A stretch of DNA of 64,000 nt from Clostridium sp. CAG:302 (GTDB lineage Bacteria; Bacillota_I; Bacilli_A; RF39; UBA660): NCBI GenBank assembly GCA_000431795.1, contig FR887368.1, positions 90,291-154,290 on the forward strand, given 5' to 3'. Below, piece by piece: positions 15,842 through 16,087 of the stretch; position 1 is the first letter of the stretch; each line of letters opens with the position of its first letter. The position numbers and the translations under genes are program-made. The notes beneath the pieces are model-generated. The model was not told the DNA's origin and searched no databases. It saw only the letters and a program-made list of their open reading frames with translations.

Positions 15842-16087
15842 TTATCCCACTAATGGATTAAAGAATAATAATAAGAAACAAAATGCAAATAAGAATAATA
15901 AGAATATTGAAAATATTATTAATATTGTCATTATTGAATGTACTACATCATTTTTAGTTTCTGGGTTTCTTCCTACGGCTTCAGCTACTCTTCCTCCTAG
16001 TAGGCCTACTCCTAGTCCTAATCCTAAAAATGCAAGTCCAACCATTACCCCTATTCCAATTGCGGTTGCAGATAAAATACTTTCCAT
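15842..16087 (-). CDS. ATP synthase subunit c-like hairpin protein lacking the helix-2 carboxylate
   Basis: Gly-rich helix 1 ([22 protein letters not shown]) and loop [15 protein letters not shown] (canonical R.QPE). Helix 2, [29 protein letters not shown], contains no Asp or Glu. Strong RBS AAGGAGG. Confidence 0.75.

Follow-up and report, generated by a model that had tools for sequence, protein, structure and literature searches.

A subunit c family that lacks the ion-binding carboxylate, encoded in an F-type-like ATPase operon of Firmicutes

Results

Layout of an F-type-like operon

The window considered here, that is, the whole stretch of 64,000 nucleotides of Clostridium sp. CAG:302 DNA that was analysed, carries on its minus strand an operon of nine genes in the order X244, subunit c, a 252-aa stalk protein, alpha, beta, an 82-aa protein, TM175, gamma and Y278. 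All nine open reading frames are intact, and their starts and stops abut or overlap throughout. A scan of the minus strand from the promoter-like site upstream of X244 to position 10047 gave no terminator-like site. The features are listed below in the direction of transcription.

16942..18132, minus strand: H396, upstream neighbour of the operon, whose membership of the system is uncertain
16859..16887, minus strand: promoter-like site upstream of X244 (TTGACT, 17-nt spacer, TG-TATACT), called by consensus scan alone
16098..16832, minus strand: X244, 244 aa, first gene of the operon
16093..16099, minus strand: Shine-Dalgarno sequence of c (AAGGAGG), 5 nt before the c start, read from the sequence
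15842..16087, minus strand: subunit c homologue, 81 aa with an ATG start, recognised by PF00137 and profile alignment
15082..15840, minus strand: b-delta-like stalk protein, 252 aa, assigned from an AF2 model and Foldseek
13752..15098, minus strand: alpha-like subunit, 448 aa (PF00006, 234.7 bits)
12404..13774, minus strand: beta-like catalytic subunit, 456 aa (TIGR01039 atpD, 459.2 bits)
12168..12416, minus strand: epsilon-position protein, 82 aa, so named from position and size alone
11639..12166, minus strand: TM175, a 175-aa membrane protein with five predicted helices
10876..11670, minus strand: gamma-like subunit, 264 aa (PF00231, 77.5 bits), its start overlapping the end of TM175
10047..10883, minus strand: Y278, a soluble protein of 278 aa, its start overlapping the gamma stop

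The Shine-Dalgarno sequence of c overlaps the stop codon of the upstream gene, X244, an arrangement that suggests translational coupling.

A scan of one genome per GTDB species yielded 435 confirmed stretches with relatives of c, and the locus-level counts given below rest on the 80 related loci that were read out of these 435. In 61-76 of the 80 loci the core genes (c, stalk protein, alpha, beta, small protein, TM175, gamma) are found again, in two orders. The gene for gamma follows TM175 in the RF39-type Bacilli, the window included; in Clostridia, among them the Lachnospiraceae and Hominiventricola filiformis, it is placed between the alpha and beta genes.

The ion-binding position of subunit c

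The protein encoded at 15842..16087 had been put forward in a preliminary description as an 81-aa subunit c homologue with Ser in place of the essential Glu, and this assignment was upheld by both a family match and a gapless profile alignment. The PF00137 (ATP-synt_C) model matched with 33.5 bits (E=5e-8), above its gathering cut-off of 24, which places the protein in that family. The score was below every NCBIfam AtpE equivalog cut-off, the best being 39.2 bits against 71. A profile was then built from 29 family members and aligned to solved c subunits. Set against chloroplast c and the c1 and c2 subunits of Acetobacterium woodii (E 1e-11 to 1e-7), it ran without gaps from the N terminus as far as the C-terminal NPL/NPF motif (FNPL in the window), and Ilyobacter tartaricus c was matched as well (E 3e-6). 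In this alignment Ser60 of the window c occupies the position of the ion-binding Glu, while Val27 replaces the helix-1 Gln of Na+-binding c subunits. No conserved Asp or Glu in the membrane emerged from the profile alignment.

As predicted from its sequence, the window c forms a hairpin of two helices, the inner one rich in Gly, joined by a polar R-(Q/N)-P loop. Helix 1 carries the pattern G22xG24xG26xG28xxG31G32, and the loop G39-R-N-P-E-T-K45 is invariant, its RNPE part being the portion that contacts gamma and epsilon. Helix 2 is wholly hydrophobic, and inspection of V48-G81 found neither Asp nor Glu, in agreement with the earlier reading that this helix holds no acidic residue. The remaining acidic side chains, Glu36, Glu43 and Asp47, lie outside the membrane, in the cytoplasmic loop region; loop counterparts of Glu43 and Asp47 are present in the canonical A. 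woodii c2.

The membrane-embedded Asp or Glu of F-, V- and A-type proteolipids binds the coupling ion, and judged by alignment this carboxylate, which marks the proteolipids of PF00137, is missing from the window c. Relocation of the carboxylate to helix 1 is known from the E. coli D61G/A24D mutant. Such a move was considered for the window c and rejected because the membrane part of its helix 1 contains no acidic residue.

F1 subunits

Judged by profile scores and conserved motifs, alpha, beta and gamma are clear homologues of the F1 subunits. The alpha-like protein scored 420 bits with NCBIfam PRK13343 (cut-off 554); its C-terminal domain is shortened, and it keeps the Arg finger in the motif SVSRLG, a residue found in all 65 of 65 relatives. 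The beta-like protein fell barely under the cut-off of TIGR01039 atpD (459.2 against 462.85 bits), and residue alignment to the beta subunits of Bacillus PS3 and Fusobacterium showed that it keeps Walker A, GERSREG, Walker B DN and EELSEED. The gamma-like protein scored well above the PF00231 gathering cut-off (77.5 bits against 39.9), and it reached 45.8 bits against 194 with the NCBIfam gamma model. Compared with proteins of known structure, the window beta matched the G1 beta of Mycoplasma mobile (PDB) with 286 bits, and canonical bacterial F1 beta subunits with 375-384 bits.

One substitution in the catalytic subunit deserves comment. The Arg of the canonical LLGRMPSAVGYQP (LLGRMP) segment of beta, which we take to be the phosphate-binding residue R246 of E. 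coli beta, is Glu in the window. Across the loci this position is occupied by Glu (32), Arg (13), Gln (8), Asn (6) or Lys (1), and the Arg is replaced in at least 47 of the 60 relatives scored. Loss of the equivalent of R246 would fit an ATP chemistry that runs in the direction of hydrolysis only. Alternatively, it could be that the change from Arg to Glu reflects a low catalytic activity.

The stalk and the membrane partner

The gene for the stalk protein lies directly after c in 76 of the 80 loci. In its product an N-terminal membrane helix leads into a long helix, and beyond a variable linker lie a bundle of short helices and a small beta domain. No similarity to delta or b was detected at the sequence level with Pfam, NCBIfam or a profile search. 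An AF2 model (pLDDT 59 overall, 63-82 over residues 120-240) was therefore compared with the PDB using Foldseek, and almost all of the best ~ 32 matches were delta/OSCP or mycobacterial b-delta proteins (best E=8e-3, probability 0.99). With a model of moderate confidence and modest E-values, the protein reads as a b-delta fusion by resemblance of fold.

The 82-aa protein, encoded directly after beta in 72 of the 80 loci, gave no match to Pfam, NCBIfam or the PDB, also when a profile of 22 family sequences was used. From its place and size, it may be the counterpart of the N-terminal domain of epsilon.

TM175 follows the epsilon-position gene in 61-67 of the 80 loci. It is the sole polytopic membrane partner of the ring encoded in the operon and is poorly conserved. 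Across the family TM175 shows neither a conserved Arg nor any other charged or polar membrane residue that is conserved, and profile searches of Pfam, NCBIfam and the PDB returned no match. A subunit a (PF00119/AtpB) was detected neither in the window, its operon included, nor in the operons of the 80 loci, and the other membrane proteins of the operon show no conserved membrane charge. Note that the AF2 model of TM175 is unreliable (pLDDT 52), so TM175 may yet descend from a degenerate subunit a.

Loss of the carboxylate across the family

The preliminary description had proposed a survey of orthologues to see whether the carboxylate is retained in relatives. Among 190 distinct full-length relatives, position 60 is Ser in 92, Ala in 79 and Thr in 19; none has Asp or Glu at the site, and the loss is conserved. 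Helix 2 is devoid of any acidic residue in 188 of the 190. More distant representatives of the family have Val, Ile, Phe or Gly at position 60. In the loci that were read the residue is Ser, Ala or Thr in 80 of 80, and a protein search gave 947 relatives of c, with the carboxylate missing in all of the 120 listed. The carriers include RF39-type Bacilli, Lachnospiraceae, Erysipelotrichaceae, the cultured Hominiventricola filiformis CLA-AA-H276 (NZ_JAJEPS01) and the complete genome CP091726.1, and they span two classes, Clostridia among them. A search of 72,556 plasmids with the stalk protein and c gave no match.

Selection on the operon was assessed against close orthologues (dS 0.2-1.4). The dN/dS of c was about 0.02 (range 0.02-0.05) and was the minimum or joint minimum of the operon in each comparison; the other core genes gave 0.02-0.18 and the surface proteins 0.14-0.36. 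On these comparisons, loss of the carboxylate is a fixed trait of the family held under strong purifying selection, and the low dN/dS together with the family-wide loss excludes a recent pseudogenising change. The operon could in principle be the decaying remnant of an ATP synthase operon, as the residue essential for canonical function is lost, alpha is shortened and the Arg of the LLGRMP segment of beta is replaced. However, nine intact reading frames, an operon dN/dS of 0.02-0.18, and a carboxylate-free c in every locus read, from two classes, make this scarcely credible, and the pseudogene reading was rejected on dN/dS and distribution.

The family also stands apart from canonical subunits by score. 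In an exhaustive search over 1.84 billion cluster representatives, carboxylate-free members scored at least 67 bits and canonical Glu-bearing c subunits from about 51 bits downward, a gap that sets the carboxylate-free family off as a separate cluster. This bears on the suggestion that the ring is a mixed one, in which the carboxylate-free c would be combined with canonical c and a subunits encoded elsewhere, lowering the ion/ATP ratio as A. woodii c1 does. The best PDB match of the c-family profile is indeed A. woodii c1 (E=1.2e-11), in whose second hairpin Gln stands for Glu, and such partners might lie beyond the window and the operons of relatives, which the search for other a or c genes covered. 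The sharp separation of scores speaks against a mixed ring, as does an operon that has its own F1, stalk and membrane partner and yet a single c and no detectable a in 80 of 80 loci. The A. woodii c genes, moreover, all share one operon with a, unlike the arrangement seen here, and a mixed ring is considered very unlikely.

A further alternative is that the ring transports an ion or another substrate in a non-canonical manner, through a polar stripe of His50, Ser51, Thr54 and Ser60 and with TM175 taking the place of a. Among the RF39-type members His50 and Ser51 are invariant and Thr54 nearly so, position 60 is mostly small or small and polar (Ser, Ala, Thr), and in its AF2 model TM175 ends in two long helices that loosely recall the hairpin of subunit a, at a pLDDT of 52. 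Other members, however, have Gln, Ser, Arg, Lys or Gly for His50 and Gly, Ala, Thr or Cys for Ser51, and the distant representatives carry Val, Ile, Phe or Gly at position 60. Asp47 offers no better candidate, since it sits at the boundary of the loop, occurs in the canonical A. woodii c2 too and is missing in a few family members. With a TM175 in which no charged or polar membrane residue is conserved family-wide, transport of this kind appears distinctly improbable.

In public records these c genes are labelled 'F0F1 ATP synthase subunit C', and NCBIfam holds no model dedicated to the carboxylate-free family. No published description of a carboxylate-free c in a Firmicutes F-type operon was found in a literature search whose coverage excluded most subscription journals.

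Surface proteins and neighbouring genes

In 47-51 of the 80 loci the core is flanked by genes for three extracellular proteins with N-terminal anchors: F8 of ~ 1900 aa (at most 2350), F7 of ~ 475 aa and F6 of ~ 240 aa. Their juxtamembrane domains are homologous (hhalign 98%, 93% and 77%) and their N-terminal helices are ordinary signal-anchor helices; the three proteins gave no match to curated families. F6, F7 and F8 were searched for across the whole window and are absent from it. In the clade of the window (L001-L017 and L061) X244, H396 and Y278 stand in their place. A relationship of X244, H396 and Y278 to F6, F7, F8 or F13 as diverged versions was examined and rejected, the hhalign probabilities being at most 11%.

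X244 is specific to this clade, and its homologues lie directly upstream of c in 18 loci. It has a Lys/Arg-rich N terminus followed by a single transmembrane helix, so the remainder of the protein should be extracellular, and it evolves fast (dN/dS 0.14-0.16 against 0.02 for c). Y278, likewise confined to the clade, has homologues at the equivalent position in 16 loci and gave no family match in Pfam or NCBIfam. In H396, which is secreted or a membrane protein, a signal peptide and a Ser/Thr-rich linker precede C-terminal transmembrane helices and a tail rich in Cys. Its tblastn matches at the equivalent position in 16 loci share 42-81% identity; no gene of the region evolves faster, and no curated family was matched. 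The link between these surface proteins and the ATPase core is one of gene neighbourhood.

A Flp-like gene is present at the end of the operon in 18 loci. A connection with Flp pili was rejected, because the genes beyond it are housekeeping genes without Tad machinery. The flanking genes of related loci are also housekeeping genes, including genes for peptidoglycan. The window itself uses standard stop codons and carries spoIIGA adjoining a sigma-factor gene. The relatives bear the group labels 'Tenericutes / Mycoplasma sp. CAG / Bacilli bacterium'. Taken together, spoIIGA, the sigma-factor gene and the relatives' peptidoglycan genes identify the host as a walled Firmicute with sporulation genes and not a mycoplasma.

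The presence of large secreted or anchored proteins in the operon of most relatives raises the possibility that the ring merely tethers an F1-like ATPase that works in the cytoplasm, for instance as an ATPase subject to regulation or as a motor for export or unfolding, like the related FliI/FliH/FliJ of type III secretion, perhaps serving these surface proteins. A ring without an ion site, the lack of a detected a-subunit partner and a b-delta-like fusion that recalls FliH are in keeping with such an anchor. A simple tether, though, would have no need of a hairpin that is nearly invariant (dN/dS 0.02) or of a conserved loop for binding gamma and epsilon, and a heterohexamer combined with gamma, a c-ring and a peripheral stalk amounts to the full rotor and stator architecture for torque. 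The ordinary signal-anchor helices of the surface proteins also count against an export motor. A passive anchor is accordingly judged unlikely.

Discussion

A proposed rotary ATPase that would not pump ions

The preliminary description had left the choice between a passive anchor and a rotor without ion coupling. Of the two, the rotor without coupling fits best, given the missing subunit a, the absence of a conserved membrane charge, the RNPE loop, the stalk and the catalytic motifs of beta, while the passive anchor fits poorly with a retained stalk and with a c whose dN/dS is the lowest of the operon or tied for it. The reading that we favour, and regard on balance as probable when taken as a whole, is that the window encodes a rotary F-type-like ATPase that would hydrolyse ATP without pumping ions, its c being unable to bind a coupling ion in the canonical way, and that its work would be mechanical and directed at membrane-anchored surface proteins.

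By homology the complex would comprise alpha3beta3, gamma and a c-ring; the b-delta-like stalk is added on the strength of its fold, and the epsilon-sized protein and TM175 are counted as components from their position. ATP hydrolysis in beta would turn gamma, docked on the conserved RNPE loops of the ring, and the ring would then rotate in the membrane against a stator made up of the anchored b-delta stalk and TM175. Since a carboxylate, a detectable a and a conserved membrane charge are all lacking, neither H+ nor Na+ would be moved. The mechanical output would instead cross the membrane to the single-pass, N-terminally anchored surface proteins of the operon, the candidate target being X244 in the window and, in most relatives, the ~ 1900-aa protein with its two juxtamembrane-domain paralogues. 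Since the peripheral stalk has been retained, torque between rotor and stator presumably still matters, and this is the main argument against a passive anchor.

A bolder version of this mechanism can be sketched, which we consider speculative and rather improbable. Accessory single-pass proteins sit inside V-ATPase rings. By analogy, the carboxylate-free c-ring of these Gram-positive gut bacteria might serve as a membrane-spanning drive shaft, with the N-terminal helices of the surface proteins docked in or on the ring, so that F1 would crank a giant extracellular protein in adhesion, motility or surface remodelling. The system would then represent a new class of mechanical transducer acting through the membrane and possibly the ancestor of the reduced mycoplasma motors.

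To our knowledge, no rotor ring of the F, V or A type has been characterised that lacks an ion-binding carboxylate altogether. Non-bioenergetic work by F1-derived motors is known to us only from the mycoplasma gliding and MIB-MIP ATPases, which are confined to mycoplasmas and whose membrane parts are not understood. The carboxylate-free family differs in having a recognisable ring and stalk from which the ion machinery is gone, and it occurs in hundreds of gut species and at least one cultured isolate. If the favoured reading is true, the family would open a route to understanding how torque from F1 can be harnessed across a membrane with no ion gradient involved, and what the role of a 'dry' c-ring is. 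Annotation of these genes as subunit C of an F0F1 ATP synthase also means that metabolic reconstructions of RF39 and other gut bacteria could wrongly credit them with a working ATP synthase. The existence of a cultured carrier makes the system experimentally tractable.

Comparison with known systems

The window c is, by sequence and architecture, a member of the c/proteolipid superfamily that lacks the superfamily's defining functional feature. With canonical F1Fo c subunits, especially those of the Na+ type (A. woodii, I. tartaricus), it shares the Gly-rich helix 1, the R-(Q/N)-P-E loop and the C-terminal (F/L)xNP(F/L), and as in canonical operons it is encoded beside b, alpha, gamma and beta. 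The window beta (459 bits, cut-off 463) resembles canonical AtpD about as closely as many true AtpD proteins do. In contrast to canonical c subunits, however, the window c has neither the membrane carboxylate nor the Gln, Ser, Thr and Tyr of the Na+ site. The operon also differs in having no detected a and no separate delta, a single b-delta-like stalk protein, an extra five-helix membrane protein, and the gene order c, b-delta, alpha, beta, epsilon-position protein, TM175, gamma. With the NCBIfam equivalog models for canonical F1Fo, the products scored below the cut-off for beta, alpha, gamma and c, and the models for b, delta and epsilon were unmatched.

Partial loss of carboxylates is a feature of A. 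woodii c1 and the V-type proteolipids, in which hairpins are duplicated and one of two carboxylates is lost, the second hairpin of c1 being the one with Gln. In those rings the other hairpins keep their carboxylate and the enzyme pumps ions with an a subunit, whereas the sole c gene of the window operon encodes none.

The N-ATPase, or alternate F1Fo (Dibrova et al. 2010), is likewise an F-type operon that is second in its genome and atypical; it is distributed patchily across lineages and includes additional small membrane proteins. It keeps a, however, and the ion site of its c is complete; the genes run in the order beta-epsilon-Q-R-a-c-b-alpha-gamma, also unlike that of the window operon. 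The NCBIfam alt_F1F0 models were missed widely, with 15.9 bits against 130.85 for c, 403 against 752 for beta and 342 against 750 for alpha.

The FliH/FliI/FliJ export ATPase of flagella and type III secretion offers another case of an F1 relative that spends ATP on non-bioenergetic work at a membrane, and FliH resembles a b-delta fusion. The FliI complex differs in being a homohexamer, with no differentiation into alpha and beta and no c-ring, and with NCBIfam models the window alpha and beta scored far lower as FliI than as F1 subunits.

The mycoplasma F1-like X0 ATPases (Type 2, M. mobile G1; Type 3, MIB-MIP) share with the window an F1-derived operon, a membrane part that is not Fo, a genetic link to surface proteins and a presumed task of passing on force instead of making ATP. 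The mycoplasma F1-derived motors are linked to surface proteins (PMC3369863; PMC12994834), and the F1-like ATPases have been proposed to pass force across the membrane to them (PMC12994834). Their seven-gene cluster has no b and no c, and three of its seven proteins are without known homologs (PMC12994834), which implies that no a or delta is present there either. The view in the preliminary description that these clusters have no c homologue is in agreement with that account (PMC12994834). Their membrane part consists of a 12-helix protein and a large protein with two C-terminal helices, accompanied by a small cytoplasmic protein (PMC12994834); none of these three components was found in the window operon.

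The differences from the mycoplasma systems are nevertheless considerable. Both c and a b-delta-like stalk are kept in the window system, whose beta is nearer to canonical F1 and whose host is a walled Firmicute with sporulation genes. The NCBIfam models for Type 3 failed (MSC_0619 alpha, 313 against 520 bits; MSC_0618 beta, 415 against 570), as did those for Type 2 (MMOB1660, 373 against 600; MMOB1670, 372 against 850). It had been suggested that the locus might be an evolutionary intermediate towards the mycoplasma systems. The proxies available, namely the beta bit scores, the failure of the NCBIfam models, the gene content and order, the non-mycoplasma host and the occurrence in Clostridia, lend this idea no support.

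As judged from its gene content and model scores, the operon is without the defining features of canonical F1Fo, of the N-ATPase and of the mycoplasma Type 2 and Type 3 F1-like X0 ATPases alike. In its likely function, by analogy, it most resembles the mycoplasma F1-derived motors.

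Residue substitution in the beta-like subunit

The catalytic beta-like subunit of the F-type-like ATPase departs from the canonical LLGRMPSAVGYQP segment at its Arg position, which we take to correspond to the phosphate-binding residue betaR246 of E. coli.

12404-13774, minus strand: beta gene, with Glu in place of the Arg of LLGRMPSAVGYQP

The residue at this position varied among the related loci, being Glu in 32, Arg in 13, Gln in eight, Asn in six, and Lys in one. The change from Arg to Glu in the beta of the window could indicate a catalytic site that is slowed or limited to hydrolysis.

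Divergent genes and an insertion or rearrangement upstream of subunit c

X244, the first gene of the operon, and H396, the gene upstream of it, have diverged far more than any other gene of the region.

16098-18132, minus strand: X244 and H396, surface or membrane proteins upstream of the subunit c homologue
47708-49774: topA
42408-42481: tRNA, inside the interval between topA and H396

Both showed 77-88% identity to genomes in which alpha, beta, and c reach 98-99%, with dN/dS values of 0.14-0.23, a typical pattern where exposed proteins recombine or face diversifying pressure. In three related loci (L001, L003, and L004) the gene directly upstream of H396 was 98-99% identical to the topA of the window, and in a fourth (L002) 94% identical, whereas in the window itself topA and H396 are separated by about 29.5 kb (the 18200-47700 region). 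Compared with the closest genomes, this part of the window has been rearranged or has received an insertion.

Neighboring surface proteins and other reading frames

7661-9981, minus strand: three tandem paralogues of 209-255 amino acids, just downstream of the operon
21306-23309, minus strand: 667-amino-acid ORF, farther off, with an N-terminal signal similar to that of the camelysin/TasA-type paralogues
18245-19012, minus strand: ORF in which two stretches match the DUF1016 N-terminal domain

The tandem paralogues have a strong promoter-like site of their own (10036-10008), are conserved neighbors in 22 loci, and in two of the three cases display a weak camelysin/TasA-type N terminus. Most relatives have the ATPase core flanked by an N-terminally anchored giant surface protein of 1800-2350 amino acids (at about 1100-9990 in L018, L022, L036, L040, and L071; also in many other loci) and two smaller paralogues, all sharing a single juxtamembrane domain; beyond weak fn3 and collagen matches, no Pfam or NCBIfam family was found for these proteins. 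The nuclease part usually found at the C terminus is apparently missing from the DUF1016 ORF, which may be a remnant left by truncation or internal duplication.

Pilin-like and sporulation genes

63775-63993, minus strand: Flp/Fap pilin-like ORF (PF04964, 27 bits, under GA) with a class III signal peptide
62296-63721, minus strand: spoIIGA (PF03419, 160 bits), then a sigma-70-family factor gene

In 18 related loci the ATPase operon ends in an Flp-like gene, to which the Flp-like ORF of the window, ~47 kb from the operon and adjoining spoIIGA, is ~72% identical. MurF-like, Ddl, and YceG/MltG genes are also present in relatives. Together, spoIIGA and the sigma factor gene resemble the sporulation sigma-E module, a surprise given the deposited labels of the lineage ("Tenericutes" or "Mycoplasma sp. 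CAG").
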